Notes: generated from the sequence alone by a model not told the origin. Positions 1 through 33,154 are shown, counted from the first letter of the stretch. The stretch is 33,742 nucleotides of DNA from Candidatus Undinarchaeales archaeon (GCA_030753015.1 JASMDC010000039.1:1-33742), one strand, 5' to 3'. Program-made: numbers and translations.

Positions 1-220
1 CACGGCTCACCATCTTGCAGGAGCTCGCACTCGGCGATATCCTCGATGATGTCGACACATTCGCCCTGGGCACAGGCACCAGCGCCGTCGTTGCACGGCT
101 CACCATCTTGCAGGAGCTCGCACTCGGCGATATCCTCGATGATGTCGACACATTCGCCCTGGGCACAGGCGCCAGCGCCGTTGTTGCACATTTCACCATC
201 TACGAGGAGCTCGCACTCGC
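1..220 (-). repeat. 93-bp (31-aa) coding tandem repeat, unit CELLQDGEPCNDGAGACAQGECVDIIEDIAE, continuing past the window edge
   Basis: Units start at 1, 94 and 187. The first two are nearly identical and the third is partial and diverged. Confidence 0.95.
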
Positions 221-3200
221 CGAGGGACGGCTCCGTCGTGGGTTCGGGCGTAGGTTCTAGCTCCTTGTATACGCAATAGCTGGCCTCGCAGTACTCGTCG
301 GTGCTGCAGTCCTCATCGAGCTCGCACTCGGCGGTGTAACCATATTCAGAAAGGTCCTCCTCGCCGATGCTATCGTCAGTCAGAGGGATACAGAACTCCT
401 CTTCGCAGTAGAAGCCCTCTCCACAGTCGTCGTCTGCCTGGCACTCAGCTTCGTACCCCTCGTCGATGTATTCATCACCGAGGTCATCGCCACCTACGTA
501 CTCGCAGATGCCGTCAAAGCACAGTTCGCCCTCGAGACAGTCCTCATCTACAACACATCCCAGCTCGCCGAACTCGTCGAAGACCTCACCGGACTCGTCG
601 AAGTAGTCCCCGGCCTCATCCAGAAGATCTTCGGCCTCATCAGCGAACTCCTGCTCGAGCTCCTCGTCGATTAGCTCCTCGGCATCGTCGAATAGGTACT
701 CGACATCGTCGTCGAGCTCGATGAAGTCGATGTCGTCGCCCTTGCACGAAGAGATGCAGATGTACTGCTCCTCAGGATCGTCGATGTCCCCACAGAGGGC
801 GTCGCACTCTTCCTCGGGGATGAACTCTTCCTCAGGGAAGTCCTCGTCACCATAGCCGCTGCACACGCACTCGCCATCAAAGCACATGGGTGTGTCCATA
901 CCGATGGCCATGGGGCACTCGAGACCTCCGCAATCGTCATCCGCCTGGCACTTATCGAGCTCGGGCTCGGTAGGCCCGATGGGTCCGGTGGGCTTGTTGT
1001 TCTTCATCCACGCATCACGCTTGTGCTCAACGCACTTCCGGATGCAGATGTTCATCTTGGCAGCGCCTCCGCGCATCTCGCCAGCCATCTGGACGGCGGC
1101 CTTGGCGAGGTCCATGCCCTGCCGGAACTCCCTTGCACCCTCGCGAGCAGCGCCCGATGCTCCGAAGAGCGCAGGTCGGGGCTCGTCCCCGGGACCACCC
1201 TGGCCGGGGCGGTTGGCGAGAGCCCTCTCTCTAAGATCCCTGCACTTCGGCGTGCGGAACGCAGGCCTTGCAGGATTCAGGCATTCAGGAGGTATCTTCG
1301 GAGCAATACCTTCACGGGGCTGCTCCCTTGGCGGTTGCTCCTTGGGAGGCTGCTCCTTGGGAGGCCGCTCCTTGGGAGGTTGCTCCCCACCGTACTTACC
1401 GGCCTGGCCAGTGAACTTCCTGGCAGCGGTGTTAATGTCGATGTTGAGCTTGTTAGCACAGTCCATGGCACACTCGGCCCTGGCCAGCTGCATGTCGAAC
1501 CGGTTACCAGGGCGCTCAAGGCGCTTGGCGATACCGGGAGGCGCGATGCACTTGGTCATGCACTTGGCCTTGTTCTTCTCGCCCTTGCACTTATCCTGGC
1601 ACTTCTTCATGTGCTTGGGCGGGACCACGTGCTTGGCCACGGTCTTGATGCGACACTTCTCCATGCACTGCATGTGCTTGAAGGGACTGCGCTTGTACTC
1701 AGCGCACTCCTCTTGGCACCCGCCGAAGTTAAACTTGATCTTCGGGCGCTTTGCAGCGCACTTGTAGGTGTAGGCCATGGCCGCCTTCTTGCACCCTTCC
1801 TCGCACCTGGCGAAGCAGAGCTCAGGCTTGCACTCCTCGACCTTCTTACACTCGCGGGTGATCTCATCACCCTCGCGCGTCACCTTGCAGCGCTCGCGAG
1901 TGATGCACACGTCCTTGGTGTTTGCGCACTTGCGCTCACAGCCGTCGAAGCACTTGTTTGCGACCTTGAAGGCCTCGCCCTCACACTTGCGCTTGTTCTC
2001 GTGCTGCTGACCCTCCTCGAGGGACTCATCCTCGCACTTGTCGAGGCAGCCCTTCTTGTCGCGGGCGAACTTGCACTTTGCAGCACAGATGTTGTCGGTC
2101 AGACCGGGACGGAAGAACCGCTTGCCCAGGCACTTGGGGACGCACTGTTCCACACCCGTTTGACACTTTTCCTCGCTGGACTGCTGACAGAAGTTGTTGC
2201 AGTCATCGATCTTGGCCTCGCACTTATCGAGGAACTTCTCGGCCTCGGCCTCGCAGTTCTCGATGGATGCCTCGGCCTCCTCCTGGATGGCACCGCACTC
2301 GTCGAGGCATAGGCCATACTCGGCCTCGGAGGCCTCGGCGTCCTCGGTATCCTCAAGGATGAAATCACAGCTAGAGAGACACTCGTCGACGACAGCGCTC
2401 AGGTCCTGGTCTCCGACCTCGGCACAGCGGGCAAGGATGTCCGCGGCACCGTCCTCGCACTCAGCAGCATCCGCGGAGCACCGCTCCTCGCACCCGCCGA
2501 TGAAGTCCAGGCACCGGTCGAACTCCTCGTCGCATCGGTCCTCGCACATCCCCATCCGGTCCTCGAAGCCCTCTGCGAGATTCTTGGCCTCAAAGGCTGC
2601 GGCAAAGAGCTTGCCCTTGGCAGCGTCCTTCTTAGCGTTCACGCGAGTGGCGGTCATGCACTTCGAAAGCTTATGCTTCGTCTTGGAAGCGATGATGCGG
2701 GCGCGGCGGTAGTCGACACCGTCAAACTCGCTTAGCACGTCGTCGGCCATGCCCTCGGCATCGGCGATGAGCGCTGCGCACTCGTCCGCGATGAAGCCGG
2801 CGGACTGCGCTTCCTCCATGAAGCCCTTGAAGTGTTCGAACTCCTTCATGATGCCGTTTGCGAACCGGTCCATGCCGGCCCGCTCCTCGTCCAGGAGCTC
2901 GTCGATCTTTTGCCGGGCAAGATCCTTGTCACCGGCGTAGAACTTCTTGATAGCGCCCCAGCGCGCGTTCTTGGCATCGTTATGGGCCTTGCGCAGTGTC
3001 TTGAGCGCGAGGTCGAGCTTGCCTGCGGCCTGGGCCTCATTGGCCTTGGCGATGATGGCCTCGGCGGCCTCGTACCTCTTGAGCGCATCCTCGATAGCTG
3101 CAATCTCCTCCTCGGTCTCGGCCGTGGCCTCAAGCTCTTCGAGCTGGGCTCCCAGGTCCATGAGGAAGGCTTCAGCCTCCTCGAGGGCCTCTGCGAGCCT

Positions 3201-4295
3201 GGCATCGAGCTTGTCCTTGTTCTTGGCAAGGCGCTCTGCGGCCTTCTCCTTGAACTTTTCGCGCTTCTCGGCCCACTCATTCTTCATGGCCTTAGCGCTC
3301 TCAACGAGCTTGCGGCCAATGTCCTTGGCGGACATGGCGTCCACCCGAATGCCCTCGGTGAGGAGGAGCTGGGCGGCGATCTTGCTCACCATCTCGGGCT
3401 TGCCGACCACCTTGACCTCCTTTATGCCCTTCTCGATGATGAAGGCAACGAGGTCCGGGATCTGGCTCTCGTCCTTGATGATCTTGGCCGCAGCCTTCTC
3501 AGGCATGGCCGGTAGCGCGATGACGTTCTTGAAGTCGACACCGGGAGCGAGCACGAGGAGGCGGGTGACACCCTCTTTGATGAGCTCGTCAACGACCTTC
3601 TCTTCGACTTTCTTGGTTACTTCCTCGGTGTCCTCGCCCGAGATGAGCTCAACCTCTATATTAAGGGCCTTGAGCTCCTCGGTGACATTGGCATCGAACG
3701 CTTTACCGATGAGGTAGACCTTGGCCACACCCAGATCGGTGAGGGCCGATGCAACCTCGGCGGCGAGCACATCGTTGCCCGTGAGCAGAACAGGAAGATA
3801 GTCCTTGGCTGCCAGTGACTTGGCCACTGCCAGGAGCTCGACCTCGTTCCCCTCGTTGTTACCTAGAACGTCGCTGACCACAACGGCCTCATCGACGCCC
3901 TCGCTGAAGAAGTATTTAGCGATCTCGGCGGACGTACCGTACCGGGTTGCACCCCACAGGCGGGTAACTTCGAATCCGTCTGTCACAAGTTCTTCCTCGA
4001 TGGCTGCCGAGATTACGGCCTCACCACCAATGAGGATGATCTCGTCAGGCTTCTCTTCGTCAAGGAAGGCCTTGATATCATCAGAAAGGGCTTCCTTTTC
4101 CGTGAGGAGTATGCTCAAACCCATATACTCTGCTGCTGCACCCGATACGATCGCATCGGGATAGTTCGCGTCCGTCGCAATGATGACGCCCGGAAGCGCC
4201 CCATCGGCTGATTCTCCACCCAGGTCCTCTGCAAGTCCTACAGACAGCAGCAGTACCAAAGATAACAATAGTGCCTTCGCCTTCACCTTCAACAT
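1..4295 (-). CDS. Giant secreted cell-surface protein (>1431 aa, 3'-partial): signal peptide, CWB2 (cell wall binding repeat 2)-like repeats, coiled coil, CX3C-rich region, acidic Cys-rich repeats
   Basis: Translated by hand from the ATG at 4295: MLKVKAKALLLSLVLLLSVGLAE (signal peptide), then ...IATDANYPDAIVSGAAAEYMGLSILLTE...IILIGGEAVIS...VTRLWGATRYGTSAEIAKYF (PF04122-like). No in-frame stop was seen to the window edge. The track has no minus-strand ORF in this frame, and its + ORFs 15..260, 1023..2312 and 2832..3515 are in-register antisense shadows. Confidence 0.93.
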   Translation of the reverse strand, partial: MLKVKAKALLLSLVLLLSVGLAEDLGGESADGALPGVIIATDANYPDAIVSGAAAEYMGLSILLTEKEALSDDIKAFLDEEKPDEIILIGGEAVISAAIEEELVTDGFEVTRLWGATRYGTSAEIAKYFFSEGVDEAVVVSDVLGNNEGNEVELLAVAKSLAAKDYLPVLLTGNDVLAAEVASALTDLGVAKVYLIGKAFDANVTEELKALNIEVELISGEDTEEVTKKVEEKVVDELIKEGVTRLLVLAPGVDFKNVIALPAMPEKAAAKIIKDESQIPDLVAFIIEKGIKEVKVVGKPEMVSKIAAQLLLTEGIRVDAMSAKDIGRKLVESAKAMKNEWAEKREKFKEKAAERLAKNKDKLDARLAEALEEAEAFLMDLGAQLEELEATAETEEEIAAIEDALKRYEAAEAIIAKANEAQAAGKLDLALKTLRKAHNDAKNARWGAIKKFYAGDKDLARQKIDELLDEERAGMDRFANGIMKEFEHFKGFMEEAQSAGFIADECAALIADAEGMADDVLSEFDGVDYRRARIIASKTKHKLSKCMTATRVNAKKDAAKGKLFAAAFEAKNLAEGFEDRMGMCEDRCDEEFDRCLDFIGGCEERCSADAAECEDGAADILARCAEVGDQDLSAVVDECLSSCDFILEDTEDAEASEAEYGLCLDECGAIQEEAEASIENCEAEAEKFLDKCEAKIDDCNNFCQQSSEEKCQTGVEQCVPKCLGKRFFRPGLTDNICAAKCKFARDKKGCLDKCEDESLEEGQQHENKRKCEGEAFKVANKCFDGCERKCANTKDVCITRERCKVTREGDEITRECKKVEECKPELCFARCEEGCKKAAMAYTYKCAAKRPKIKFNFGGCQEECAEYKRSPFKHMQCMEKCRIKTVAKHVVPPKHMKKCQDKCKGEKNKAKCMTKCIAPPGIAKRLERPGNRFDMQLARAECAMDCANKLNIDINTAARKFTGQAGKYGGEQPPKERPPKEQPPKEQPPREQPREGIAPKIPPECLNPARPAFRTPKCRDLRERALANRPGQGGPGDEPRPALFGASGAAREGAREFRQGMDLAKAAVQMAGEMRGGAAKMNICIRKCVEHKRDAWMKNNKPTGPIGPTEPELDKCQADDDCGGLECPMAIGMDTPMCFDGECVCSGYGDEDFPEEEFIPEEECDALCGDIDDPEEQYICISSCKGDDIDFIELDDDVEYLFDDAEELIDEELEQEFADEAEDLLDEAGDYFDESGEVFDEFGELGCVVDEDCLEGELCFDGICEYVGGDDLGDEYIDEGYEAECQADDDCGEGFYCEEEFCIPLTDDSIGEEDLSEYGYTAECELDEDCSTDEYCEASYCVYKELEPTPEPTTEPSLGECELLVDGEMCNNGAGACAQGECVDIIEDIAECELLQDGEPCNDGAGACAQGECVDIIEDIAECELLQDGEP
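1318..1386 (-). repeat. 15-bp coding repeat (EQPPK / ERPPK / EQPPR, about 4.5 copies)
   Basis: tgctccttgggagg-like units encode GEQPPKERPPKEQPPKEQPPREQPRE. Confidence 0.85.
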
Positions 4296-4323
4296 AGTAT
4301 CACAGTCCGTCTTCCAGATAAGG

Positions 4324-4370
4324 TGTGAACGATTTAAAACGTTTTCTGTGAACGATTGAAACGATCGTTG
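4324..4370 (-). promoter_or_regulatory. Promoter of the giant surface-protein gene: TATA box (TTTTAAA, 4333-4339) flanked by TGTGAACGATT direct repeats
   Basis: TGTGAACGATT occurs at 4324-4334 and 4347-4357, with AACG at 4328, 4338, 4351 and 4360. The region is AT-rich and the TATA box lies about 40 bp upstream of the ATG. Confidence 0.6.
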
Positions 4371-4654
4371 ATGCGATTATCGTAGGCATTATAATTACGA
4401 GCTATATCGTTAAAGAACGTTTCCCTATGTTTTTTAGGCGTTATACCATAATAATTGCAGGTTCTAGTGGAATTCCGCCATGTGTTGCGCCCTATAGAAG
4501 CTAAGTGCGCTTTAATTAATGCATATACCATTATTGTGTGAGATTCTTCCAGTATACGGTCATTCTCGTTATGAGATACATTCTTTGTCGTGCGTCATCG
4601 TCGAAAAAAGAGTCTTCGAGTCTTCCTTACCTCGAAAATGGACCGCTCGCACAC

Positions 4655-5644
4655 CTACTGTGTGAGCTTGATCCTGTTCACGCGACCCATCCCTTCTTTT
4701 ACCAGGATGCCCCGTGCCTCCATGTGGTTCAGGAGCTTGCTCAGCTTCGCCTTGGAGAATGACACCTCAAGGACCAGTATGTTCTGGTTGAGTTCCCCAT
4801 CAGCCCCTAGCAACGCGTCGACGACCTCACGCTCGTCCCACTTCAGCTCGGCCTTGGGGTACGTCGTCACGCCGCTCCCCTCGGAAGTCGCTAAAGGATA
4901 CAACCCCCGTCCGACAACAGCGACGAGGATACCTAGGACCGAACCGATCGCGAGGAACATCGCCCCTTGCCCCATGCTCAGGGAAGGTACTTCACGCTCG
5001 ACTACCATGACTGTGGGCACCGGCCTCTCAATGATGGTCTCGATGCGCTGTGGTGCTTGGAACTTCACGAAGATATCAAAGCTCCGCTCAATGAGGTTGC
5101 TCCTCGACCACTCGAGGATGAGACGTCGACCGTCAGTTGATACGAGGGCCTGAGGGACCATGACTGGCTCCGACTCGTCGAGCTCGTCTGTCTGCACCAT
5201 GAGGAAGTGACCCTCAGGTAAGTGGAGTCGGACATTGAGCTCATCAAGTTCTCTAGGAAGGGAGAGGCGACCGGAGAAAAGTGACGAGGTGTTGTAGCGC
5301 TCGATGAGGCCCTTGACCCTGAAGGACGCTGAAAATGACAGGGTTACGTTCGGTGCAAGGGCCGGACTGAATGACACCACCAACACCTTGTCCGAGGTCC
5401 TGTTCATGGTGAGCGTGACACTACCATCACCCTCCACTGAAACGTCGAAAGCTTTTGCCGGGATGCGTGTAAAGACGTCCAGTAACGGCTCCTCACCGAC
5501 GTTCGTGAGCGTGTAGGTGAGAATCTCGGCCGCGACACCATCATCTGAAAGATCATAATCAACGGAAAGGCTCTGCACGGAGACGTCGGCGGATCCCACG
5601 AGCAATAGGAGCGTGAGCAGGAGCGCGGCCTTCCGCAATCGCAT
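4655..5644 (-). CDS. Membrane-anchored winged-HTH transcriptional regulator (COG2512-like)
   Basis: Signal peptide, beta-rich extracellular domain, one TM helix (AMFLAIGSVLGILVAVVG) and a C-terminal wHTH (DEREVVDALLGADGELNQNILVLEVSFSKAKLSKLLNHMEARGILVKEGMGRVNRIKL). Confidence 0.85.
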   Translation of the reverse strand: MRLRKAALLLTLLLLVGSADVSVQSLSVDYDLSDDGVAAEILTYTLTNVGEEPLLDVFTRIPAKAFDVSVEGDGSVTLTMNRTSDKVLVVSFSPALAPNVTLSFSASFRVKGLIERYNTSSLFSGRLSLPRELDELNVRLHLPEGHFLMVQTDELDESEPVMVPQALVSTDGRRLILEWSRSNLIERSFDIFVKFQAPQRIETIIERPVPTVMVVEREVPSLSMGQGAMFLAIGSVLGILVAVVGRGLYPLATSEGSGVTTYPKAELKWDEREVVDALLGADGELNQNILVLEVSFSKAKLSKLLNHMEARGILVKEGMGRVNRIKLTQ

Positions 5645-5663
5645 TGAACCGGTCTTGTGAGGA

Positions 5664-5683
5664 ACGATACATAAATGTATCGT
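5664..5683. promoter_or_regulatory. Perfect 9-bp inverted repeat ACGATACAT-AA-ATGTATCGT over the probable TATA box of the wHTH gene
   Basis: Read directly from the sequence, 20-40 bp upstream of the ATG at 5644. Confidence 0.55.
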
Positions 5684-5785
5684 CGGTCCGAGTGAGGGAG
5701 AAGAACACCGTGCGCACCTCGGACGATTTAAATAACTGACACGAGGGATTGAACTGTCCGACCCAGAGCCTGACGAGTGGATACA

Positions 5786-7750
5786 ATGACATCCTTCGAC
5801 CTGACCGCCTCCTTCTCACCGGCTGGCGACCAACCCAGGGCGATCGACAAGCTGGTCGAAGGTTTCTCTCACCACAAGCACCAGACGCTTCTCGGTGTGA
5901 CCGGTTCGGGAAAGACCTTCACCATGGCCAATGTCATCAAGCGCTTGAACGTACCGACATTGGTCGTCTCTCACAACAAGACGCTCGCAGCCCAGCTCTA
6001 TGGCGAGTTCCGCACGTTCTTCCCTCATGACCGAGTCGGCTATTTCGTCTCGTACTACGATTACTATCGACCAGAGAGCTATCTTCCCAAGACTGATACC
6101 TACATCGAAAAGGAGTCTGACGTGAATCCGCAGATCGAGCGGCTGCGGCTCCAGGCCGCCACCCACCTGATGTCCGGTTCCAACGTGGTCATCGTGGCGA
6201 CGGTCTCGTGCATCTTCGGGTTCGGCTCGCCGGCCGAGTTTCGTAAGCAAAGCGTTGTCGTTCGGCAGAGCGGTCAGTTCCCACGTCGCGAGCTCTTGGG
6301 CTCTCTCGTCCACGTTCAGTACGAGCGCAACGATATGGACCTCGGACCTGGGACCTTTCGCGCTCGGGGCGATGTCATCGATGTGTTCCCACCCTACGCC
6401 GATGAGGTGATCCGTATTGAGCTCTTCGGCGACGATGTGGAACGCATCGGTCGGTTGCACCCCGTGACCGGCACCCGGCTCGGCGATCTCGATGTCGTCA
6501 CAATCTTCCCAGCTAAGCCCTTCGCTATTGACGATAGTTCGCTCACCCGTGCCATCGGGAGCATCCGCACGGAGCTAGATGCTCATCTCCCGGAGCTCGG
6601 GCCATTGGAGACGCATCGCCTTAGAACAAGGACGAAGTACGACCTTGAGATGCTCGAAGAGATGGGGTATTGTACTGGTATCGAGAACTACTCGCGACAT
6701 TTCGATGGACGGGCATCGGGTGAACCGCCCTACACCATGGTCGACTACTTCCCCGACGGATTCCTTACCATCGTGGACGAGTCGCATGTGACCCTGCCCC
6801 AGTTGCGGGGGATGGTAAAGGGCGACCGTTCGCGCAAGAAGAACCTGATCGACCATGGTTTCCGCCTACTGTCGGCCTACGACAACCGACCGCTCACCTT
6901 CGAGGAGTTCATGGAGAGGACGAGCAAGGTGCTCTTCGTATCAGCTACTCCTGCGTCCTTCGAGCTGCAAGGCTGCGGACAGGTCGTTGAACAGATCATC
7001 CGGCCCACAGGGCTTGTGGACCCTGATGTCGTCGTCCGTCCGATCGAGGGCCAGGTGGACGACCTCATGGAAGAGATCAGACGCACGACCGCTGCGGATC
7101 ACCGCACGTTGGTCACCACGCTCACCAAGCGCATGGCCGAGGATCTCACGTCGTTCCTTTCCGATGCTGGCCACCGCGTTCGATACATCCACGCCGAAGT
7201 GGACACCCTTGAGCGCACCGAAATCATCCGCGACCTCAGGCTCGGCACGTTCGACGTCCTTGTGGGTATCAACCTCCTGCGCGAGGGGCTGGACCTGCCC
7301 GAGGTCGGGCTCGTGGCCATCCTCGACGCTGACAAGGCGGGCTACCTGCGTACGGATACGGCGCTCATCCAGACCATCGGTCGCGCTTCCCGCAATGCTG
7401 AGAGCAGGGTCATCATGTACGCGGACAAGGTCACAGAAGCTATGGACAGGGCCATCAGCGAGACCGAGCGTCGTCGCGACCTCCAGACCGAGTTCAACCG
7501 GGAGCACGGCATCACCCCCACAACAGTGGTCAAGGCCGTAGCTGAGGGGCTCGGGGAGGGTGACAAGCGACGTAAGCGCCGGCGCCACGCCCGATCGTCC
7601 GAGCTTGGTAGAGCTGATCACGAGCTCGAGGCGGAGCTGGAGGCCAAAATGCGCAAGGCCGCTGAAGAGCTCGACTTCGAACGTGCCATCGAGTTGCGGG
7701 ACCGTCTCAGGGAAGTGCGCGGTGAAGTGCCCATGAGGCCACGTACCTGA
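5786..7750 (+). CDS. uvrB: Excinuclease ABC subunit B
   Basis: Motifs PAGDQP, GVTGSGKT, HNKTLAAQLY, YFVSYYDYY, DESH, INLLREGLDLPEV and a C-terminal UVR domain. The ATG at 5786 is preferred over the GTG at 5777. Confidence 0.98.
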   Translation: MTSFDLTASFSPAGDQPRAIDKLVEGFSHHKHQTLLGVTGSGKTFTMANVIKRLNVPTLVVSHNKTLAAQLYGEFRTFFPHDRVGYFVSYYDYYRPESYLPKTDTYIEKESDVNPQIERLRLQAATHLMSGSNVVIVATVSCIFGFGSPAEFRKQSVVVRQSGQFPRRELLGSLVHVQYERNDMDLGPGTFRARGDVIDVFPPYADEVIRIELFGDDVERIGRLHPVTGTRLGDLDVVTIFPAKPFAIDDSSLTRAIGSIRTELDAHLPELGPLETHRLRTRTKYDLEMLEEMGYCTGIENYSRHFDGRASGEPPYTMVDYFPDGFLTIVDESHVTLPQLRGMVKGDRSRKKNLIDHGFRLLSAYDNRPLTFEEFMERTSKVLFVSATPASFELQGCGQVVEQIIRPTGLVDPDVVVRPIEGQVDDLMEEIRRTTAADHRTLVTTLTKRMAEDLTSFLSDAGHRVRYIHAEVDTLERTEIIRDLRLGTFDVLVGINLLREGLDLPEVGLVAILDADKAGYLRTDTALIQTIGRASRNAESRVIMYADKVTEAMDRAISETERRRDLQTEFNREHGITPTTVVKAVAEGLGEGDKRRKRRRHARSSELGRADHELEAELEAKMRKAAEELDFERAIELRDRLREVRGEVPMRPRT

Positions 7751-7754
7751 TCTG

Positions 7755-9818
7755 CTACACCCTCGGCTTGTTGCAGTGAGGGCATACTGCCAGGCTCGCA
7801 TGTATCTGTTGTCCACAGTGCGGGCAGGGGACGGTCGCAGCCACTACATCGGTAGGTGCGGGGCCGGACGGGATGAAATCCTGTGCGGTCCTGCGTGTGT
7901 AGCCGAACTGCTGCTGGCGATAGTACTGTCCCGACTGCCCCCACCCCGGTGCCTGAGCCCATTGCTGTTGTTGTTGGGGGTACTGGTATGCGTGAGGTGC
8001 CTGTGCTGCAGGAGCTTGCGCAGGTGGGGCGGGTACCTGAACGGGTTCTGGCGCTGTTCCGGGAGGCGCGACCGGAGGTTGTGCTGGAGCCTGCGCGGGA
8101 GCGGGCGCCTGATAGGAGGGTGCCCCGGGCTGCTGATAGGGTGAGGCCGCTGCGGGAGGAGTCATGGCACCACCCGAGGGCACTGCGAAAATCTGGTCAT
8201 CTGTGCGGCTCTTGGAGGCATCCACGGCGCTCTGGAGGTCCTTGGGGGACGGTTTCGCCGCGAGCTGGGGAGGCGTGATGGCGATAGGCGGTGCCTCGAC
8301 TCGGAATTCATTTCTCGTGTCGGCGAACGCCTCTTCCGGGAAGAACGTGTCCTCGGGCGGTGGCCCACCACGCCGCATGAAGATGACGAGTATACCCACG
8401 AGCAGGATGAGCCCTGCAGCTCCAGCGAGTATCATCGTGTCATCGACGGGGATGCCAAGGCCCGGGATCACGAATCCCGTCGGGGTAGGTTCGGGCGTCG
8501 GCTCCGGTGTCGCCTCGGGCGTCGGTTCCGACGTTGGTTCGGGTGTCGCCTCGGGAGTGGGCTCCGGCGTCGGCGCCAGTTCGGCGTCGGTCTTCCACGC
8601 ACCATTAACACATGCACCCCCTGTCGCGTTCCAACTGTCCGCGCCCTCGGTCCAGCAGCATCGGTCGTCATGCCAGCTCCCCTTCAGGCACTCGCATGCT
8701 TCCTGGGTAGCATTGGCCTTCGTGCAGCCGCTACAGTCGAACGTACACGTCCCACCACTGCAGGCCTGGCACTCGCCGCAGGCGTCCTCGGTCCATGAGC
8801 CGCCCTCGCACCGGCCAGCTGTCCCGCACCAGCCATCGTCCGGACCGCAGCATCGCTCCTCGGTCCACGCGCCGCCCTGGCAGGTAGTACAGAGGTGCTC
8901 GTCCGCTTGGGAGGTCCATGTCCCATCTGAGCAGTAACCCGTGGTCCCGCACCACGCCTCGTCGGGATCGTCACCACAGCACTGGCCCCCCTCCCACTTG
9001 AGGTCCTGGCAAGTGCAGCTCGTCTCATCGGTGTCAGGATCCGTGGCGACATCGTAGCAGGCGCCGTCGATGCAGCAGCCGGTCCGACACTGGTCGTTGG
9101 ATGTGCATGGCCCGCAGTCACTACCGGCCTGGACAGGCTCCCAAGTCGAACAGGTCCACCCTGCGCACGCGTCGTACCCGCTCTTCCCGGGGAAGTCCTG
9201 GGATGTGCAGTTCCAGATCTCGCACAGGCCGTCGCCCCAGGTCGCGCACTCCCAGGTCGCGCAGCTCTCGTAACTGGTGAGGACGGTCACGCACTCCCAG
9301 TCCGTGCACACGCCCTTGGCCGATGCACGGCAAACGAACGACTTGCACCCCTCTCGCCCGCTCACTAGCGGAGGGATGGCGTTCTCTGTGCAGTCCCACA
9401 AACCGCACACGTCCTTTGTTGTGTCCGTGCACGCGTACCGTGTGCAGCTCTCCCGGTCGTTACCGGCAGGAATATCGATCGAGCTGCAGTCCCAAGAGAT
9501 GCACAGTCCACGGTCCCATGCGGTGCATATGTTCTCGTCACAGCTCTGGTCGCTGATCACGGGATCTGTGGCGTTGCAGCTCCAACTCGAACACTGGCCG
9601 CCCTTGAAGTCGTTACAATTCCATACATCGCATGTCTCCTTCCCGCTACCTAATGGAGGGAGCATGATGTCGGAGCAGTCCCAATGAGCGCAGGTCTCCG
9701 ACGAGCACGGGAGCACGCCAGAGAGAGGGCCGACGGGCAGGTCGTTGTCACCGAACTTTGCCAATCCGAACACGAGGACGACGATGCCCAGGACGGCCAA
9801 GAATCGTGCTCCTCTCAC
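7755..9818 (-). CDS. Membrane protein with extracellular Cys/Trp-rich repeats, a PTPE stalk, a TM helix, a Pro/Gln-rich tail and a C-terminal double zinc ribbon
   Basis: N-terminal signal or anchor, repeats such as ESCATWECATWGDGLCEIWNC, a PTPEPTPE linker, TM ILAGAAGLILLVGILVIF followed by MRR, and C-terminal CPHCG...CPHC. Confidence 0.88.
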   Translation of the reverse strand: MRGARFLAVLGIVVLVFGLAKFGDNDLPVGPLSGVLPCSSETCAHWDCSDIMLPPLGSGKETCDVWNCNDFKGGQCSSWSCNATDPVISDQSCDENICTAWDRGLCISWDCSSIDIPAGNDRESCTRYACTDTTKDVCGLWDCTENAIPPLVSGREGCKSFVCRASAKGVCTDWECVTVLTSYESCATWECATWGDGLCEIWNCTSQDFPGKSGYDACAGWTCSTWEPVQAGSDCGPCTSNDQCRTGCCIDGACYDVATDPDTDETSCTCQDLKWEGGQCCGDDPDEAWCGTTGYCSDGTWTSQADEHLCTTCQGGAWTEERCCGPDDGWCGTAGRCEGGSWTEDACGECQACSGGTCTFDCSGCTKANATQEACECLKGSWHDDRCCWTEGADSWNATGGACVNGAWKTDAELAPTPEPTPEATPEPTSEPTPEATPEPTPEPTPTGFVIPGLGIPVDDTMILAGAAGLILLVGILVIFMRRGGPPPEDTFFPEEAFADTRNEFRVEAPPIAITPPQLAAKPSPKDLQSAVDASKSRTDDQIFAVPSGGAMTPPAAASPYQQPGAPSYQAPAPAQAPAQPPVAPPGTAPEPVQVPAPPAQAPAAQAPHAYQYPQQQQQWAQAPGWGQSGQYYRQQQFGYTRRTAQDFIPSGPAPTDVVAATVPCPHCGQQIHASLAVCPHCNKPRV
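8480..8575 (-). repeat. 12-bp coding repeat (PTPE/ATPE stalk)
   Basis: Encodes APTPEPTPEATPEPTSEPTPEATPEPTPEPTPT. Confidence 0.85.
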
Positions 9819-15348: not shown

Positions 15349-15939
15349 TCAGTACGAACCGCTGAAGTAGAGCGCAATGGCCACTGATGCTACGATGGCC
15401 AAGACAACGCTGGTCATCACCCACCACCGGACCCAGCGGTCCATTTCGAATCCGATCTCCACTCCACGCTCCCGGAGAAGGTCCTCGATCCGCCTGAGGT
15501 CCGTTGCCAATCCACCGATGCGATGCGTTCGGCCGTAGGTGTCCTTGAGCTCGAGCGCCAGATAGGCACGGTCTCGTTGCCCGCGTTTAGAAGCGAGCGT
15601 GAAATTCGCTTGATCGATCTCACGCACGTCCAGGTTGAGAGGTAGGTCCTCGTCGAACACGACACCCGGGACGACGAGCGAGTTACCATGGAATCTTATC
15701 GGTTCCGGTTCGGGATGCTCGATCCGTGCGAAGTACAACCGGGCAGCCACCCAGGAAAAGAGCGCGAACGCGACCAGCCAGCCTTCGCCAATCCAAGTAT
15801 CATGGAAACTGTACTGCAGGAGCGCGAAAGGGACGACCGTCGACAACGAGAGCATACGTGATCGTGCTGATAGACGGAGCCCGGGTGTGAAGAGAGGCAC
15901 CAGGGCAAGTTCGCCTTTAGTTCCGCCTTCACCCTCCAT
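15349..15939 (-). CDS. Hypothetical membrane protein (two N-terminal TMs, soluble beta domain, C-terminal TM)
   Basis: Hydrophobic segments, and it fills the gap directly downstream of the malic enzyme gene. The start could be 15939 (ATG) or 15945 (GTG). Confidence 0.7.
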   Translation of the reverse strand: MEGEGGTKGELALVPLFTPGLRLSARSRMLSLSTVVPFALLQYSFHDTWIGEGWLVAFALFSWVAARLYFARIEHPEPEPIRFHGNSLVVPGVVFDEDLPLNLDVREIDQANFTLASKRGQRDRAYLALELKDTYGRTHRIGGLATDLRRIEDLLRERGVEIGFEMDRWVRWWVMTSVVLAIVASVAIALYFSGSY

Positions 15940-15954
15940 GAGCACACCAGGACA

Positions 15955-22123: not shown

Positions 22124-23050
22124 ATGCCCGGGGACGGTCTTGACGCCTACATGGACCGCGATCACTGCGCAGTCTATAATATGCTCGAGACCGACCGGGA
22201 GCTCGTTCACGATATCATCGAATACAGCCACGTCTACGATAGGGCCATCAAGGAGCACGAGCACATCGACCGTACCGACCTCACCCGGCGCATCAGGGAC
22301 GAGTACGGTTGGGACCAGACCAAGGCCGAGTCCACACTGCATGACGTCCTCGACCTGGGTGCGCTTGACATGCTCGGACGACTCGATGGGGAGTCAGTGG
22401 TCGAACGGGCACGCTACACACAGTCCCTCCGCCCTCAGCTCGAGGATGCGTACAAGGACGCCGTGGCTTACCACGCGTCCAAGGGGCGACAGATACCCCA
22501 GGACATCACTGTGGGCATCCATATCGGCAATCCACGGGAGATGATCAACTTCGACGTGATGGCCTCTTACGATCCAGTGGACAACCGGGTGCGTATCAAG
22601 GAGAAGGATGCTCCGTTCAAGGGCGTGGAACCAAACCAGGACGCGCTCTTCAACTGGGACCGCTTCTCCAGGGATACGCTCTACCGGGCCTGCCTTGTAC
22701 ACGAGTTCGCCCACGTCAACAACGACCGTACCTACGATGTCAACGGCGAAAAGAACGACGTGCTCGACGAGGGGCTGGCGGTGTACACCACCCTCGAGTA
22801 CTGCGCAGACATGGTCAAGGAGGGCCAAGAGGAGTTCGGCCTTTTCGCCAAGAACTATGTCACACGTTCGCTGGAACTCACCAAGAAGTACGCCCTCGGC
22901 ACCCGCGTCGTGGCAGGGATCCTGGCCAGCGAGGGTAAGGAGGGTCTCGAGAAGGCATTCAAAGGTGACAGGAACCTCGAGGAGCTCGCGAAGGAGTACA
23001 GGCTCCTCGGTGAAAAAGTGCTCGCAGATCAACTTGCGAATATCGTCTAG
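22124..23050 (+). CDS. Putative zinc metallopeptidase (gluzincin-like), no signal peptide
   Basis: LVHEFAH followed by LDEGLAVY and a later KYALG. A TATA box TATTTAAG at 22093 fits a near-leaderless start. Confidence 0.8.
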   Translation: MPGDGLDAYMDRDHCAVYNMLETDRELVHDIIEYSHVYDRAIKEHEHIDRTDLTRRIRDEYGWDQTKAESTLHDVLDLGALDMLGRLDGESVVERARYTQSLRPQLEDAYKDAVAYHASKGRQIPQDITVGIHIGNPREMINFDVMASYDPVDNRVRIKEKDAPFKGVEPNQDALFNWDRFSRDTLYRACLVHEFAHVNNDRTYDVNGEKNDVLDEGLAVYTTLEYCADMVKEGQEEFGLFAKNYVTRSLELTKKYALGTRVVAGILASEGKEGLEKAFKGDRNLEELAKEYRLLGEKVLADQLANIV

Positions 23051-23363: not shown

Positions 23364-23948
23364 GTGGATGTGGAAGAACGCTCCCGGGCCATTCGCTTCG
23401 CTATCGGGAAGACCCGTAACGATCTTAAGAAAGTAGTGGCCGAGCGCGGTCGGCTCGTGCTACATCCCGGGGACATGGAGCGGTCTGCAGCCTGCGTCCA
23501 GTGCGGTCTGTGCGTTGGGTCGTGCCCCTCCGGACGGTGGACGGCACTGAACATCCGTCGCATCATCCGCGCTATTCAGCTCGGCGTGGGCGATCCCACT
23601 CATGATCCCGCGCTGTGGGAATGCACGACCTGCTACGCCTGCCAGGAGCGATGTCCTCGTGAGGTCCCCACCTGCGAGCTCGTTCGGGCACTGCGCAACC
23701 ATGCGTTCGCCAGGGGGCTCGTCGACGATGAGCACGTCGCGGTAGCCCGCACTGTGGTGCGCACAGGTCACACCATCGAACTTGGGGATGAGGGCCGAGA
23801 GAAGCGCGTGTCGCTCGGTCTGCCCGAGGTGCCCCCCACCGTCCTCGCCGACCCCGCTGCCCTCGAAGAGGTACGAATGCTCCTGAGCCGCGTTGGATTC
23901 TCACAGCTTATACATGATGCGTTCGAGACGAAGGAGGGCGATAGTTGA
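23364..23948 (+). CDS. hdrC: Heterodisulfide reductase subunit C
   Basis: Two [4Fe-4S] motifs, CVQCGLCVGSCP and LWECTTCYACQERCPR, and a C-terminal LGLPEVPPT. Confidence 0.93.
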   Translation: MDVEERSRAIRFAIGKTRNDLKKVVAERGRLVLHPGDMERSAACVQCGLCVGSCPSGRWTALNIRRIIRAIQLGVGDPTHDPALWECTTCYACQERCPREVPTCELVRALRNHAFARGLVDDEHVAVARTVVRTGHTIELGDEGREKRVSLGLPEVPPTVLADPAALEEVRMLLSRVGFSQLIHDAFETKEGDS

Positions 23949-24817
23949 AACCTCTGGCCCTCTTCCTCGGCTGCATCGCACCCATTCGCATGCCGGGCAT
24001 CGTATCGTCCACACGACTCGTGCTCGACCACTTCGATGTGCCATGGACGGAGATGAAGGGGGCCTCATGCTGCCCCGCCCCGGGAGTGGTCGGCTCGTTC
24101 GACCTCACCACATGGCTCACGTTAGCTGCCCGGAACATCACCCTGGCCGAGGAACTGAAGGCCGACATCACCACGGTGTGCAACGGATGTTACGGCACGC
24201 TGCAGGAGTCCTCCGCCATCCTCGCCGACGAGAATGTGCGGTACGAGGTCAACGAGCGGCTCGAAGAGATAGGGAGGGAGGTCCGCGGAACAGCGCGCGT
24301 GTACCATCTGGTGGAAACATTGCATGATGCAGTGGGCCCGGAGCGCATCACGAAGGCGTCCTCTGGCCTCGAGGGGCTCAAGGTTGCTGTCCATCACGGA
24401 TGTCACTTCCTAAGACCGCGACGGACCAGGGACCATGGGTCAAGCGAGCGACCGAACATACTAACCGACATCGTCAGCGCCTGTGGCGCCCAGCCCGTGG
24501 CATGGTCCGAGGCCCATACGTGTTGCGGTGCGGGCGGCGGTGTACGCGCGGGGCGGCCGAGTACGGCGCTGCGCATCACCGCGACCAAGCTGCGTTCCGC
24601 CCATGAGGCCGGTGCCGACGTCATCGTCAATCCCTGTTCGTTCTGCCACCTCCAGCTCGTTCGGGGACAGGAGGAGCTGCAGGAGTCGCATGGCCTCGAC
24701 ATCTCCGTCCCGGTGCTCCACGTGGCCCAGCTCGTCGGCCTCGCCATCGGGCTCGACCGCAGCCGCCTTGGGATTGAGGGGCCACCGCTCCCCAAGGGGG
24801 TGCCGAAGCGTGAGTGA
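23945..24817 (+). CDS. hdrB: Heterodisulfide reductase subunit B
   Basis: FLGC, ASCCPAPG, CNGC, HHGCH, CCGAGGGVR and CSFCHLQ (two CCG domains). The TTG start overlaps the hdrC stop. Confidence 0.95.
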   Translation: MKPLALFLGCIAPIRMPGIVSSTRLVLDHFDVPWTEMKGASCCPAPGVVGSFDLTTWLTLAARNITLAEELKADITTVCNGCYGTLQESSAILADENVRYEVNERLEEIGREVRGTARVYHLVETLHDAVGPERITKASSGLEGLKVAVHHGCHFLRPRRTRDHGSSERPNILTDIVSACGAQPVAWSEAHTCCGAGGGVRAGRPSTALRITATKLRSAHEAGADVIVNPCSFCHLQLVRGQEELQESHGLDISVPVLHVAQLVGLAIGLDRSRLGIEGPPLPKGVPKRE

Positions 24818-27194
24818 TGGACCACCTAAGCGAATTGGCGTGTGGACATGCCGTTGCGGCGGGAACATCGGCGATGTCGTGGACGCGGTCGGTGTAGCGA
24901 AGGAGGCCGCGGGATGGTCGGACGTCGCTAGTGGGCTGTGCAAGGAATACCTGTGCTCGCCCGATGCCCAGGACGAGATCGCACGGGCCATCGAGGAGGG
25001 CGAGGTGGACAGGGTGGTCCTGGCCTGTTGCTCACCACGTCTCCATGGTGCGACCTTCCGGCGTCGGTTCGGTGAAGCAGGGCTCGATCCGTCTCACGTG
25101 GCCATCGCCAACATTCGCGAACAGGGCTCTTGGGCTCATAAGGAGGATCCTGAGGGGGCCACAGCGGCCGCCCGCGACACTATCCATGCTGCCGTCGAAG
25201 GCGTCCGAGAAGCGACGCTACGCGCACGCACGCCCATCACGGTAACTCAGGAGGTGCTTGTCGTGGGTGGTGGTGTGGCAGGCATCACGGCAGCCCTCAG
25301 GTTGGCACGAGCAGGGACTCGTGTTGTACTCGTTGAACGCGAGCCCTCATTGGGCGGCCACCTCTCCCGCTACCCGAAGGTATTCCCCACCCTCGACTGC
25401 TCACAGTGCATCCTCACCCCCCTCATGGCAGAGGTACGTGACGAGGAGAACGTCCGAGTGCTCGCCCCTGCTGAAGTGATAGGTGTGGAAGGGGGTCCGG
25501 GTTCCTACAACATTCGTATCCGGGAACGGTCCCGGTTCGTTGATCCCGAGCGCTGCGTTCGCTGCGGCCGCTGTGCAGATGTATGCCCAGTAGAGGTGCC
25601 AGACCCACGCCAGGAAGGGCTCGGATCACGTAAAGCAGCCTACCTCCCTTTCCTCCAGGCGGTTCCCACGACCTACCTCATCGACGGCGAGGCGTGCACG
25701 AAGTGCGGCGCGTGTGTCGAGGCATGCCCCGGCGGTGCCGTCGACCTCACCCTCGGCGACAGTGTACATGAGCTCGAGATCGGTGCGGTCGTCCTCGCCA
25801 GCGGTTACGACCTGTACGATCTCAACGACTATGGTGAATGGCTCGTGGGCGACCACCCGAACGTCGTGGGGCCTATCGCCGTGGAGCGCATGTTGGACAT
25901 CGAGGGCCCAACAGCGGGCCGTCTCGTCCGCCCCTCCGATCGAGGGGCAATCAAGCGAGTTGTCTACGTGCTCTGCGCCGGCTCCCGTGACACGAACAAG
26001 GGTAAACCATACTGTTCGGGAGTATGTTGCATGTACGCCATAAAGGAGGCACGGGTCATCCGCTCGGCCTTCCCCGGGACCGAGGTGTGGGTGTTGTACA
26101 CCGATGTGCGAGCTCCCGGGAAACGGTACGAGGAGTTCTACCGCACCGCCCAGGAAGAGGGCGTGATCTTCGTACGGGGGAAACCCGGTCAGGTCATCGA
26201 TATCGGCGACCGTCTGATGGTGCGTGTGGAGGACACCAGCGAGGCCCTGCCCATGGAAGTGGAAGCGGACCTGGTGGTCCTATGCCCGCCTTTGGTACCC
26301 CATCCCTCGGCCGCTCCTGTCGCGGCCTCCCTTGGTGTCCCGCTCGATGAACACGGCTTCGTGCTCGAGCGTCATCCCAAGCTAGATCCAGTGCGCACGG
26401 GGCGCGAGGGTGTCATGGCATGCGGAGCTGCTATCGGACCCATGGACGTCCAGAGCTCAGTTGCGACCGCCGAGGCCGCTGCTGCCAGGGCGCGGGCGTT
26501 CCTGGACGGTGAGGCCGAACCCATCGCAGGGACCGCTTTCCTATCCCGTCCCGAAGCGTGTGACGGATGCGGTGCGTGCGTCGAGGTATGCTCGTGGCGC
26601 GCCCTCGCTCTGACGGACGGAAGAGTGGTTGTGGAGGAGCCCATGTGCACCGCATGTGGCGCCTGCGTACCTGCGTGCCCGACACTGGCCCTCGACCTCG
26701 CCGGACTGGACGAAGAGGTCCTCCTGGCCCGCATCCGTGGTATGCTGACCATCCCGGTCGACGGTCCGCGTCTGTTGGTGTTTGTCGAATCGAGCGCTGC
26801 TGCGGTAGCCCTCGATAATATTGGCGCCAGCAGAATGGACTACCCCGCGGGCATACGCGTCATCGAGGTCGCCAGCACCGCCCGCATCGGGCTGCATCAT
26901 GTGATGTCCGCGTTCGCTGCAGGTGCAGACGGAGTCGCTCTCATCGAGGGGCCGCCCGAGGGGCCGTTGGGAGCGGTCCATGAGATAGCTGAGTCACGGG
27001 CACACGAGATGGAGCCCAAACTGGAAGAGTCCGGCCTCGATCCGCATCTTCGTTTCTCTTTCCGAACAGTGTACGTGCCCGAACGTCGGAAACTCGCAAG
27101 GTTGCTTTCGACTCTCTACGGCTTGGTTGAGGACGCCGGTCCGCTGGACGGACCGGCCCGCGAACGAGTCGCCAGAGCAGCGAGTACGCTCTAG
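24810..27194 (+). CDS. hdrA: Heterodisulfide reductase subunit A with a fused degenerate MvhD-like domain
   Basis: RIGVWTCRCGGNI, CSPRLH, GGGVAG, FPTLDCSQC, four ferredoxin motifs and CAGSRD..YCSGVCCMYAIK. The likely start is the GTG at 24810; the track's 24483 start lies inside hdrB. Confidence 0.95.
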   Translation: MSDGPPKRIGVWTCRCGGNIGDVVDAVGVAKEAAGWSDVASGLCKEYLCSPDAQDEIARAIEEGEVDRVVLACCSPRLHGATFRRRFGEAGLDPSHVAIANIREQGSWAHKEDPEGATAAARDTIHAAVEGVREATLRARTPITVTQEVLVVGGGVAGITAALRLARAGTRVVLVEREPSLGGHLSRYPKVFPTLDCSQCILTPLMAEVRDEENVRVLAPAEVIGVEGGPGSYNIRIRERSRFVDPERCVRCGRCADVCPVEVPDPRQEGLGSRKAAYLPFLQAVPTTYLIDGEACTKCGACVEACPGGAVDLTLGDSVHELEIGAVVLASGYDLYDLNDYGEWLVGDHPNVVGPIAVERMLDIEGPTAGRLVRPSDRGAIKRVVYVLCAGSRDTNKGKPYCSGVCCMYAIKEARVIRSAFPGTEVWVLYTDVRAPGKRYEEFYRTAQEEGVIFVRGKPGQVIDIGDRLMVRVEDTSEALPMEVEADLVVLCPPLVPHPSAAPVAASLGVPLDEHGFVLERHPKLDPVRTGREGVMACGAAIGPMDVQSSVATAEAAAARARAFLDGEAEPIAGTAFLSRPEACDGCGACVEVCSWRALALTDGRVVVEEPMCTACGACVPACPTLALDLAGLDEEVLLARIRGMLTIPVDGPRLLVFVESSAAAVALDNIGASRMDYPAGIRVIEVASTARIGLHHVMSAFAAGADGVALIEGPPEGPLGAVHEIAESRAHEMEPKLEESGLDPHLRFSFRTVYVPERRKLARLLSTLYGLVEDAGPLDGPARERVARAASTL

Positions 27195-32626: not shown

Positions 32627-33136
32627 CTAGAACCTTATGCGGTGCTGCTTCCCCCACCGTTGTGTGTGGCGCGTACGAACTTCCTCGAGGGCGTCAAGCC
32701 CGTCCCTAAGTCGCTGGATGAGGACCGGTTCGAGCACAGGGTATGAATCGTCCCATTGGACAAAAACGCGATCGCTCGCGAAGTCGCCCAAAGAGGCATG
32801 CGTGTTGTCCGATTTGAAAGTGGTGACCACCTCGTCCCGGAAAGCCTCCTCCTCGAAAGGGAGCCGTCGAGGGGACTGTACCCGAGCATGGGGCACGCGA
32901 TAGGTGGCCGAGTTCATCCCACCTTCATCGATATCGAGGATGAAGGCCGCTTCGAAACGGAACCCGGCATGACTGCCCGTCAATGTTCCACGTGCTTCGT
33001 TCGGACCGCTCTTTTCCAGTGAGACATCAATACCAGCGATGACGGTCCCAACTATTTGGGAGAAAAGTCGTAGGGCCCGTTCTAGCTTCGATCCTTCGTT
33101 CTTCTTTCTCGGCCCGAGAGGGGCCTTCCCGGGCAC
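32627..33136 (-). CDS. Hypothetical protein
   Basis: A 169-aa ORF with GGGAGG before the GTG start, lying between convergent and co-oriented neighbours without overlap. Confidence 0.65.
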   Translation of the reverse strand: MPGKAPLGPRKKNEGSKLERALRLFSQIVGTVIAGIDVSLEKSGPNEARGTLTGSHAGFRFEAAFILDIDEGGMNSATYRVPHARVQSPRRLPFEEEAFRDEVVTTFKSDNTHASLGDFASDRVFVQWDDSYPVLEPVLIQRLRDGLDALEEVRTRHTQRWGKQHRIRF

Positions 33137-33154
33137 GCCACAGGCCTCCCGTCA

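Follow-up and report, generated by a model that had tools for sequence, protein, structure and literature searches.

The Giant Gene and Its Two Pieces

The window analyzed here is a contig of 33,742 nucleotides (C50; GCA_030753015.1, JASMDC010000039.1:1-33742) from the genome of a Candidatus Undinarchaeales archaeon (G000; assembly of 3.85 Mb in 117 contigs, 98.9% complete with 5.0% contamination). Its left end carries, on the minus strand, the first 1431 codons of a giant gene whose product is exported and very rich in Cys. Most likely the product is a surface fibril, and one whose kind has yet to appear in print. The parts of the gene are listed below in the order of translation; residue numbers here and throughout refer to P0012, a public protein of 1589 aa.

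3..4295, minus strand: giant gene, first 1431 codons, with an ATG start and open at the left end of the contig
4230..4295, minus strand: Sec-type signal peptide, residues 1-22 (MLKVKAK, hydrophobic core, GLA/ED; kept in orthologues)
3306..4214, minus strand: triple CWB2 trefoil, residues 28-330 (repeats 1 and 2 by Pfam, repeat 3 by fold only)
2616..3305, minus strand: helical stalk, residues 331-560, Ala/Glu/Lys-rich, net charge -8 (long helices in the model)
1446..2615, minus strand: CX3C helical region, residues 561-950, 44 Cys (Cys spacing and helical model)
966..1445, minus strand: basic Pro-rich hinge, residues 951-1110 (EQPPK array and charge)
1318-1386, minus strand: EQPPK array within the hinge, period 15, 4.6 copies
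261..965, minus strand: acidic Cys modules, residues 1111-1345 (translation, charge and paralogue match)
3..260, minus strand: PTPEPT linker and start of the variable tip (31-aa ECxLxxDGExC...GECVD repeats, which run off the contig)
C81:1-498, plus strand of a second contig: last 165 aa of the giant gene, ending in a stop

The frame 3..4295 is free of stops and is broken off by the contig end alone; by our own estimate, the chance of 1431 stop-free codons at ~60% G+C is ~1e-20. The first-pass annotation had reported an uninterrupted minus-strand frame of at least 1431 codons, and both the open reading frame (ORF) listing and the stop-free translation confirmed it, with no in-frame stop or split. 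The segments that it had named were also found in place: the CWB2 repeats at 3306-4214 (originally put at 4190-3340), followed by the helical, CX3C, Pro-rich, acidic Cys, PTPEPT and 31-aa parts. It had also stated that the ORF track overlooked the gene; for public records this is not so, since both pieces, P0001 (1431 aa, from the window) and P0014 (165 aa, from contig C81), are present in NCBI nr as partial proteins.

Positions 1-223 of the window form a 93-nt tandem array (2.4 copies, 93% matches), and because the frame ends inside this array we attribute the assembly break at the left end to it. Contig C81 opens with this same 93-nt repeat, and its first 23 bases are the reverse complement of the first 23 of the window. 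In P0012, which was found on 7 contigs, P0001 is an exact prefix and P0014 an exact suffix, with 7 residues common to both. The 23-nt overlap and the P0012 match thus extend the gene leftwards to a complete 1589 aa, split by the assembly only. Synteny agrees with the join: in the genome of a sister species (G006), the corresponding locus (L006) has the order UvrB, DUF7343 protein, giant gene and a 699-aa protein, the DUF7343 neighbors of the two loci are 82% identical, and a 703-aa ORF on C81 is 73% identical to the 699-aa protein. Independent public assemblies contain full-length proteins of 1527, 1558, 1588 and 1589 aa, so the frame is not a product of misassembly. The mature protein has a mass of 171.5 kDa, a pI of 4.27 and 102 Cys (an even number).

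The Exported CWB2 Trefoil

The signal peptide contains no Cys, hence no lipobox. A hydrophobic C-terminal tail was absent from all five protein ends inspected (P0012 and four complete paralogues); this feature and the signal peptide were judged by eye from the translations.

The CWB2-like repeats proposed behind the signal peptide proved genuine. The match to the PF04122 model had E 7.8e-16 and 58.8 bits (cut-off 24.9), two stretches passed, and five relatives also exceeded the gathering score. An alignment of 18 CWB2 modules (A2; 12 archaeal and 6 bacterial rows, a row from L010 with a stop codon being left out) was used for an AlphaFold2 model of residues 28-345, which showed three alpha/beta units with a predicted local distance difference test score (pLDDT) of 85.1 and a predicted template modeling score (pTM) of 0.84. 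The ten best Foldseek matches in the PDB were all Clostridioides difficile Cwp6, Cwp8 or the high-molecular-weight (HMW) part of SlpA (E 6e-11 to 7e-7, TMq 0.59-0.66). VIA-align superposed the model on Cwp6 with Z 25.0 and a root-mean-square deviation of 3.0 over 277 of 318 residues, on Cwp8 with Z 23.8 and on SlpA HMW with Z 22.4-23.7; in all, seven CWB2 entries besides Cwp6 reached 22.4-23.8, whereas beyond the CWB2 entries the next Z was 10.6 and the rest did not exceed 7.6. By sequence and fold, the module is a true member of the family, with the three-lobed trefoil of Cwp6, Cwp8 and SlpA. The family model of SlpA itself (NCBIfam NF033435) scored 21.8 bits against a cut-off of 650, and over 43 residues only.

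The motifs NYPDA, (S/P)[IV]LLT, IGG..VIS and R..G.TRYGT are kept across the 18 archaeal and bacterial modules, and the invariant positions include N-Y-P-D, the T of LLT, the GG of IGG and the R and T of R..G.TR.GT. A passage in PMC5842191 describes how three tandem CWB2 repeats of ~100 aa, each an alpha/beta (toprim-like) lobe, pack as a trefoil. The P[ILV][ILV][LV] motif is given as necessary for anchoring in C. difficile, with the Pro itself dispensable, in part of PMC4973711, and a passage in PMC5842191 later assigns it to trefoil packing. Its sites read SILL in repeat 1 (PVLL in paralogues), PVLL in repeat 2 and KIIK in repeat 3.

The trefoil lacks Cys and carries a net charge of -28 (pI 4.3). 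Among the modules aligned in A2, the net charge ranges from -11 to -34 in the 12 archaeal and from -3 to -11 in the 6 bacterial ones. With 89-93% identity among orthologues, the trefoil is the most conserved part of the protein.

The Helical Stalk and the CX3C Rod

The first ~150 residues of the stalk accompany CWB2 in all paralogues, whose matches reach residue 458-600 or beyond. Residues 365-459 resemble three-helix bundles (Z 9.5), a generic likeness only. A model of residues 325-564 as two copies, run without controls, gave a score of 0.00 and a mark of 0.42 and is uninformative on self-association.

The region behind the stalk is divided into an acidic block (residues 561-700, net -34, 14 Cys) and a basic one (residues 701-950, net +20, 30 Cys), and its Cys are spaced far from randomly. 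Between residues 560 and 960, CX3C occurs 17 times against 4.76 +/- 1.95 in 2000 shuffles (maximum 13). For the other spacings, shuffled 500 times each, we counted no CX1C (~4.6 expected), no CX2C (~4.7 expected) and six CX6C (~4.6 expected). A palindromic order of the CX3C spacing carries no weight, any two CX3C motifs being symmetric by nature. The whole of P0012 contains 21 CX3C motifs among its 102 Cys, and 8 His in 1589 residues. CXXC and CXXCH are absent from P0012 and its three orthologues, and the absence of CXXCH led us to reject a multiheme cytochrome c.

The Cys of this region are also conserved. In a six-row alignment (A3), two rows of which are paralogues at 30-34% identity, 26 of the 46 Cys columns are invariant versus 71 of the 590 others (12%); the shorter of the paralogue pieces stops at residue 803, and in the part before it 26 of 30 Cys columns are invariant. 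The model of residues 325-960 built from A3 is all-helical, with 20 helices. Foldseek found no match to it in the PDB at E <= 0.001, and VIA reached Z 10.0 at best, short of the ~13 that a helical model requires, with nothing but hairpins or bundles of a generic helical type. The ESM Atlas held no usable match or stored model for residues 560-960. We therefore claim for the modeled rod neither a named fold nor a new one.

A parallel in design is offered by the small Tim proteins, in which, as a passage in PMC11452306 describes, two antiparallel helices are joined by two disulfides between Cys pairs placed at i and i+4 (twin CX3C). The rod has the same i,i+4 spacing as the small Tims and CHCH proteins, which occupy the intermembrane space of mitochondria and have a helix-loop-helix with twin CX3C or CX9C, and repeats it 17 times in 390 helical residues. 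Those proteins are single intracellular hairpins below 20 kDa, whereas in the rod the hairpins would follow one another in tandem within an archaeal protein that is secreted. No Pfam family, small Tim and CHCH included, matched residues 561-960 at E up to 10, apart from one chance row at 0.28. A tandem twin-CX3C rod, if true, would be a new design for a stiff extracellular fiber.

The Hinge, the Acidic Tail and the Variable Tip

Beyond the hinge, residues 1111-1589 form a tail with a net charge of -158, 52 Cys and 168 Asp and Glu. It starts with a 6-Cys knot, one more twin CX3C, a Cys-free acidic stretch of 56 aa and three 4-Cys CxxDxDC modules, continues with the PTPEPT linker, three 31-aa repeats and three DUF7107-type modules with APDPTLDPSE linkers, and closes with a last Cys-rich piece ending in CVLTF. 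The 6-Cys knot is common to a paralogue on contig C21 (66.7% identity over 30 aa). The DUF7107-type array lies at C81 121-341 (period 93, 97% matches). The DUF7107 family (PF23416) matches the CxxDxDC...C...C modules of the C81 tail above its gathering score (32.5 bits versus 24.6, three stretches), while the modules inside the window stay below threshold (7.6 bits) and the whole protein P0002 reaches 16.9 bits. In a sequence search of the PDB, residues 1101-1431 gave a single chance row (E 0.41). Depletion of sequons was considered and rejected, one being observed versus 2.08 expected.

The conservation of the protein falls steeply toward this end. In three orthologues, identity to P0012 is 79-94% over residues 28-950, drops to 33-74% in the hinge (951-1110), lower than anywhere else upstream of the variable tip, and is only 25-44% in the tip itself (1346-1589), where 42-134 residues stand opposite gaps. 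The tips differ in kind: P0003 and P0004 have another repeat as their tip, Cys-free and rich in D, G and Y, and P0005 has a longer DUF7107 run (48.7 bits). Members of the 90% cluster are 1527, 1558, 1588 or 1589 aa long, the differences amounting to complete 31-aa units from one array or the other, and the first 31-aa array has two or three copies in near-identical public proteins; these length differences may partly reflect assembly collapse. The conserved base and the swapped tip point to ongoing surface selection in an abundant, near-clonal marine archaeon, which is present in numerous metagenomes of seawater.

Elsewhere in the genome, C25:45769-54318 (plus strand) encodes a secreted frame of 2850 codons with 205 Cys and no PF04122 match, part of which is covered by L003. 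It carries many copies of a 31-aa ECxxxxDGxxCxxGxGxCxxGxC module with 73% DNA identity to the tip unit. Sequence for tip exchange thus exists in the genome.

Relatives and Paralogues

A phmmer search with residues 330-960 against 1.84 billion representative proteins returned four matches at E <= 0.001: the orthologue cluster of P0005, P0031 (1728 aa, 33% identity), P0033 (1527 aa, 25% identity) and P0032 (795 aa, 29% identity), the last of which looks truncated since it starts inside CWB2 repeat 3. In all four, CWB2 or its remnant is followed by the stalk, the CX3C region and then an unrelated Cys-rich end. When the whole protein served as query in a word-seeded search, ten matches appeared: four orthologue clusters (72-99% identity), the two distant giants P0006 and P0007, and four bacterial CWB2 proteins. 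P0006 and P0007 are 43% identical over anchor and stalk and have their trefoil behind an N-terminal extension of 500-770 aa; their Cys-rich ends hold CXXC and, respectively, two and three CXXCH.

The genome itself contains seven giant PF04122 frames of 1225-1865 aa with 32 to 155 Cys (two each on C21 and C35, one each on C64, C102 and C50) and an eighth, small CWB2 gene on C51. The paralogues at C21:83.3-88.7 kb and on C64 align with the giant protein through the CX3C region (37.6% over 947 and 37.5% over 774 columns, respectively) and end in Dictyostelium-type Cys repeats (PF00526). The other C21 paralogue (~53.3-58.9 kb) has 32 Cys and 2 CX3C versus 102 and 21 in P0012; it and a 1954-aa frame of G006 are 28-29% identical to the giant protein over anchor and stalk. 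Two of the paralogues share contig C35 with Ribosomal_L21e, an archaeal/eukaryotic family, and the CWB2 family is therefore the archaeon's own rather than that of a contaminant. Together with the archaeal relatives, this marker agrees with the host being an archaeon, as first supposed.

Within the GTDB phylum, PF04122 was found in 3 of 17 genomes: G000 with eight matches, G006 with seven and a 0.9-Mb genome with one (with a TAG inside). Modules 32-34% identical occur in species representatives labeled Altiarchaeota (two) and Woesearchaeota (one), and the nearest non-archaeal modules come from Actinomycetes and Desulfosporosinus.

The architecture, which the first-pass annotation had not recognized as a whole, has no characterized full-length relative in our searches. 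Anchor, stalk and CX3C region recur together in a few relatives, whose distal ends are unrelated. No archaeal CWB2 protein in print was found among the titles, beginnings of abstracts and some passages searched (10.1101/2024.05.28.596244 and 10.1101/2025.04.02.646754 included), supplementary tables, in which an entry could exist, lying outside this search. New in this work are the CX3C rod, the size of the family, the missing wall genes (see below) and the swapped tip.

Expression and Habitat

At least half of the sampled words of the gene were found in 17 of the 24 sequencing runs listed, eight of which are possibly the source of this DNA. The six further DNA runs among the 17, from five studies, bear marine, seawater or plain metagenome labels. 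Contigs of three metatranscriptome runs (two studies) lie on positions 33-3787, nearly all at >=99% identity, with 6 of 7 (X15), 8 of 8 (X16) and 7 of 8 (X17) pieces on the gene. Positions 4006-6942, with the candidate regulator gene and most of uvrB, are free of RNA-library contigs; a DNA run, X9, which has cover in 29 of 30 bins, does extend over this region. This cover fits transcription in situ, since stray DNA would cover the gene and its neighbors alike.

The RNA cover of the gene and not of its neighbors would also suit a structural envelope, an S-layer or canopy, in which the acidic/basic/acidic blocks of the CWB2 family would zip neighboring molecules into a sheet instead of serving contact with other cells. 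In C. difficile, the S-layer protein SlpA is likewise built on the trefoil, seven to eight paralogues have a common anchor and stalk, the charge blocks alternate strongly, and a conserved secreted basic (pI 9.6) Cys-free helical-repeat protein of 703 aa is encoded just downstream in both species. We nevertheless regard such a lattice as unlikely: the SlpA model reached only 21.8 of the 650 bits, Pfam searches recognized no lattice-forming domain, contigs cannot show the level of expression, and a lattice protein would hardly swap its whole distal quarter between close species.

A Probable Surface Fibril and Its Candidate Ligand

The reading that we judge probable, if by a modest measure, is that the giant protein is a CWB2-docked surface fibril with a variable tip. 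It would be held by the trefoil, since CWB2 is its only anchor-like part, and would dock non-covalently on a component of its own envelope that is neither murein nor pseudomurein nor a polymer attached by LytR_cpsA_psr (LCP) proteins. The stalk would leave the trefoil and pass into a chain of helix-turn-helix hairpins of ~390 residues with Cys i/i+4 on one face, and the CX3C Cys would serve as inter-helix disulfide staples of the twin-CX3C kind, giving a stiff rod. Next, the basic Pro-rich hinge would bear DUF7107-type and 31-aa modules as a highly acidic string of small disulfide knots. This distal string would be the exposed and exchangeable end, changed between close relatives by cassette replacement and by repeat number, and might act as a contact, adhesion or decoy surface, in line with the adhesin or cell-contact arm suggested at the outset.

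[quoted passage not shown] The differences lie in the archaeal host, in which Mur ligase, LCP and TagF were not detected, in the acidic module with its degenerate repeat 3, and in the helical Cys-rich arm of 1250 residues, which has no counterpart in C. difficile. The likeness to CwpV and Cwp66 is thus one of logic; by family, the anchor alone is shared. An archaeal protein of comparable build is tetrabrachion of Staphylothermus marinus, a giant surface protein which, like the one described here, has a long helical stalk. Tetrabrachion differs in its C-terminal membrane anchor and four-stranded coiled coil and is not known to have CWB2 or a CX3C array. Extended to the whole family, the docked fibril would become a CWP-like display system of at least eight proteins, seven of them giant, docked via CWB2 on an undiscovered archaeal surface polymer, which would correspond to a secondary cell-wall polymer although the cell lacks murein and pseudomurein, with disulfide-stapled twin-CX3C rods and exchangeable knot tips; this extension is tentative, and we give it less than an even chance.

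Several results weigh against the docked fibril. In the anchor, the motif of repeat 3 is degenerate (KIIK), and Pfam detects two stretches only. All 18 modules aligned are acidic, a poor fit to an anionic ligand unless cations bridge the two. The genome, 98.9% complete, gave no match to Mur_ligase_M, none to LytR_cpsA_psr (LCP) and none to Glyphos_transf (TagF), whereas control genomes did. For the rod, the confidence of the model is modest (pLDDT 67.6, pTM 0.33), and the helices break midway between adjacent CX3C motifs in just 8 of 14 pairs versus a rough expectation of ~4.4. VKOR and DsbB were not found in the genome, and oxidized extracellular Cys are not assured, since the Hdr/Mvh gene content suggests an anaerobe. 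Finally, the RNA runs had been chosen for holding the gene, and their contigs give neither strand nor level.

On the side of oxidation, the genome has four frames with DsbA-like PF13462 domains (C63:4187-7669, covered by L037, and others on C82 (L035), C92 and C59), several with two such domains in 650-770 aa. The frames on C63 and C82 carry CPFC; one starts with a membrane helix followed by two domains and the other has a lipobox-like start. The DsbA-like gene of C82 is followed by that of a 229-aa multi-pass membrane protein with a CAAC motif. If the Cys stayed reduced instead, they could bind metal ions or mineral surfaces while the acidic tail bound Ca or Mg, in a scavenging or nucleation matrix to which the 102 Cys, the 168 Asp and Glu of the tail (net -158), the anaerobe-type gene content and the missing VKOR and DsbB would be suited. 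This we hold highly improbable, as CXXC and CXXCH are lacking, only a few His occur (8 in 1589), the genome encodes exported DsbA-like CPFC proteins, and the i,i+4 spacing on predicted helices is that of the structural twin CX3C (in a passage of PMC11452306) and not of known metal sites. Disulfide stapling of the modeled rod, as the docked fibril supposes, is plausible, with indirect evidence in the even number of Cys, their conservation and the exported DsbA-like proteins, and the exported DsbA-like set without VKOR or DsbB may represent an unusual oxidative-folding set.

In C. difficile, CWB2 binds the anionic wall polymer PSII non-covalently, and by analogy the archaeal trefoil might bind a surface glycan. 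The lack of Mur ligase, LCP and TagF matches, together with the acidic module, disfavors a simple transfer of the C. difficile mechanism, and a PSII-like, anionic wall-hung polymer is unlikely as such; candidates would include a glycan linked to lipid or protein, a polymer bridged by cations or some other protein of the envelope. As stated in part of PMC4973711, anchoring by CWB2 is known and tested in Firmicutes only. An expanded and well-folded CWB2 family without detected wall-polymer genes implies a new class of archaeal envelope ligand or a different use of the module, which, being small and soluble, could serve to pull out its ligand.

Such a different use would be found if the trefoil were the working head of a protein released or otherwise held, taking hold of some other organism's polymer, for example that of a bacterial wall or of a partner archaeon's surface. 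The genome has no matches to the wall-polymer genes searched, the nearest non-archaeal modules come from Actinomycetes and Desulfosporosinus, and CWB2 relatives occur in small-genome archaea labeled Altiarchaeota or Woesearchaeota and in one 0.9-Mb genome of the same class. Small-genome lineages of the Altiarchaeota/Woesearchaeota type are thought to live attached to hosts. We consider a working head decidedly improbable, as no second anchor was present in the ends inspected and a metabolically equipped genome of 3.85 Mb does not suggest an obligate symbiont. Moreover, the trefoil follows directly on the signal peptide and is the most conserved part (89-93%) with the variable part at the opposite end, which is the anchor/display pattern of CwpV (as a passage in PMC5842191 describes it) and agrees with the docked fibril.

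Neighboring Genes and the Genome

Two features lie directly upstream of the giant gene:

4296..4654, minus strand: upstream spacer of 359 bp, A+T-richer (G+C 0.505 in 4001-5000)
4655..5644, minus strand: 329-aa membrane protein (PF24034, DUF7343, 44.1 bits; same place in L006)

With a TTTAAAT box ~40 nt ahead of the start codon, the spacer may act as an archaeal promoter. The 329-aa protein has a signal-like N-terminus, an outer domain, one transmembrane helix and a C-terminal DUF7343 winged-helix domain. A DUF7343 paralogue (28% identity) stands directly upstream of the small CWB2 gene on C51 (C51:117214-118703, minus strand, with a 457-aa CWB2 frame in the same order as in the window), so that two of the eight CWB2 loci are so flanked. 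It is a reasonable guess that the 329-aa protein is a candidate dedicated membrane-bound regulator.

Downstream, on C81 (L034), the 703-aa protein (2922-5033, plus strand) has a signal-like start, no Cys, a pI of 9.6 and about ten repeats of ~19 aa (LTRDDVRELI..YK), the repeat region having a pI of 10.25. It could conceivably be a basic partner of the acidic tail. Between it and the giant gene lies an ORF of 582 aa without a Pfam family (C81 790-2538, plus strand), where L006 has 444 bp. An insertion sequence was considered for this ORF and found no support, there being no Pfam family and only two distant copies (23-24%).

Elsewhere in the window, ORFs of 687, 308, 198, 169 and 193 aa have no Pfam match at E <= 1e-5 (7755-9818, minus strand; 22124-23050, plus strand; 15349-15945, minus strand; 32627-33736, minus strand). 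Positions 23364-27194 (plus strand) encode an Hdr-like set made up of one protein with a 4Fe-4S dicluster, one with a CCG domain and a frame of 903 aa in which FAD/NAD-binding, 4Fe-4S and MvhD (FlpD) parts are joined, whose gene content suggests anaerobic energy metabolism.

The genome (3.85 Mb, ~60% G+C) and that of its sister (3.6 Mb) are large for their phylum, the other 15 species of which, in the same class, have 0.6-1.2 Mb. Candidatus Undinarchaeota, as the sister record is labeled, are described in a passage of PMC7414124 with a mean genome of 0.66 Mbp. One possibility is that the archaeon, with its large genome and metabolic equipment, is related to a DPANN lineage; another is that it is wrongly placed.

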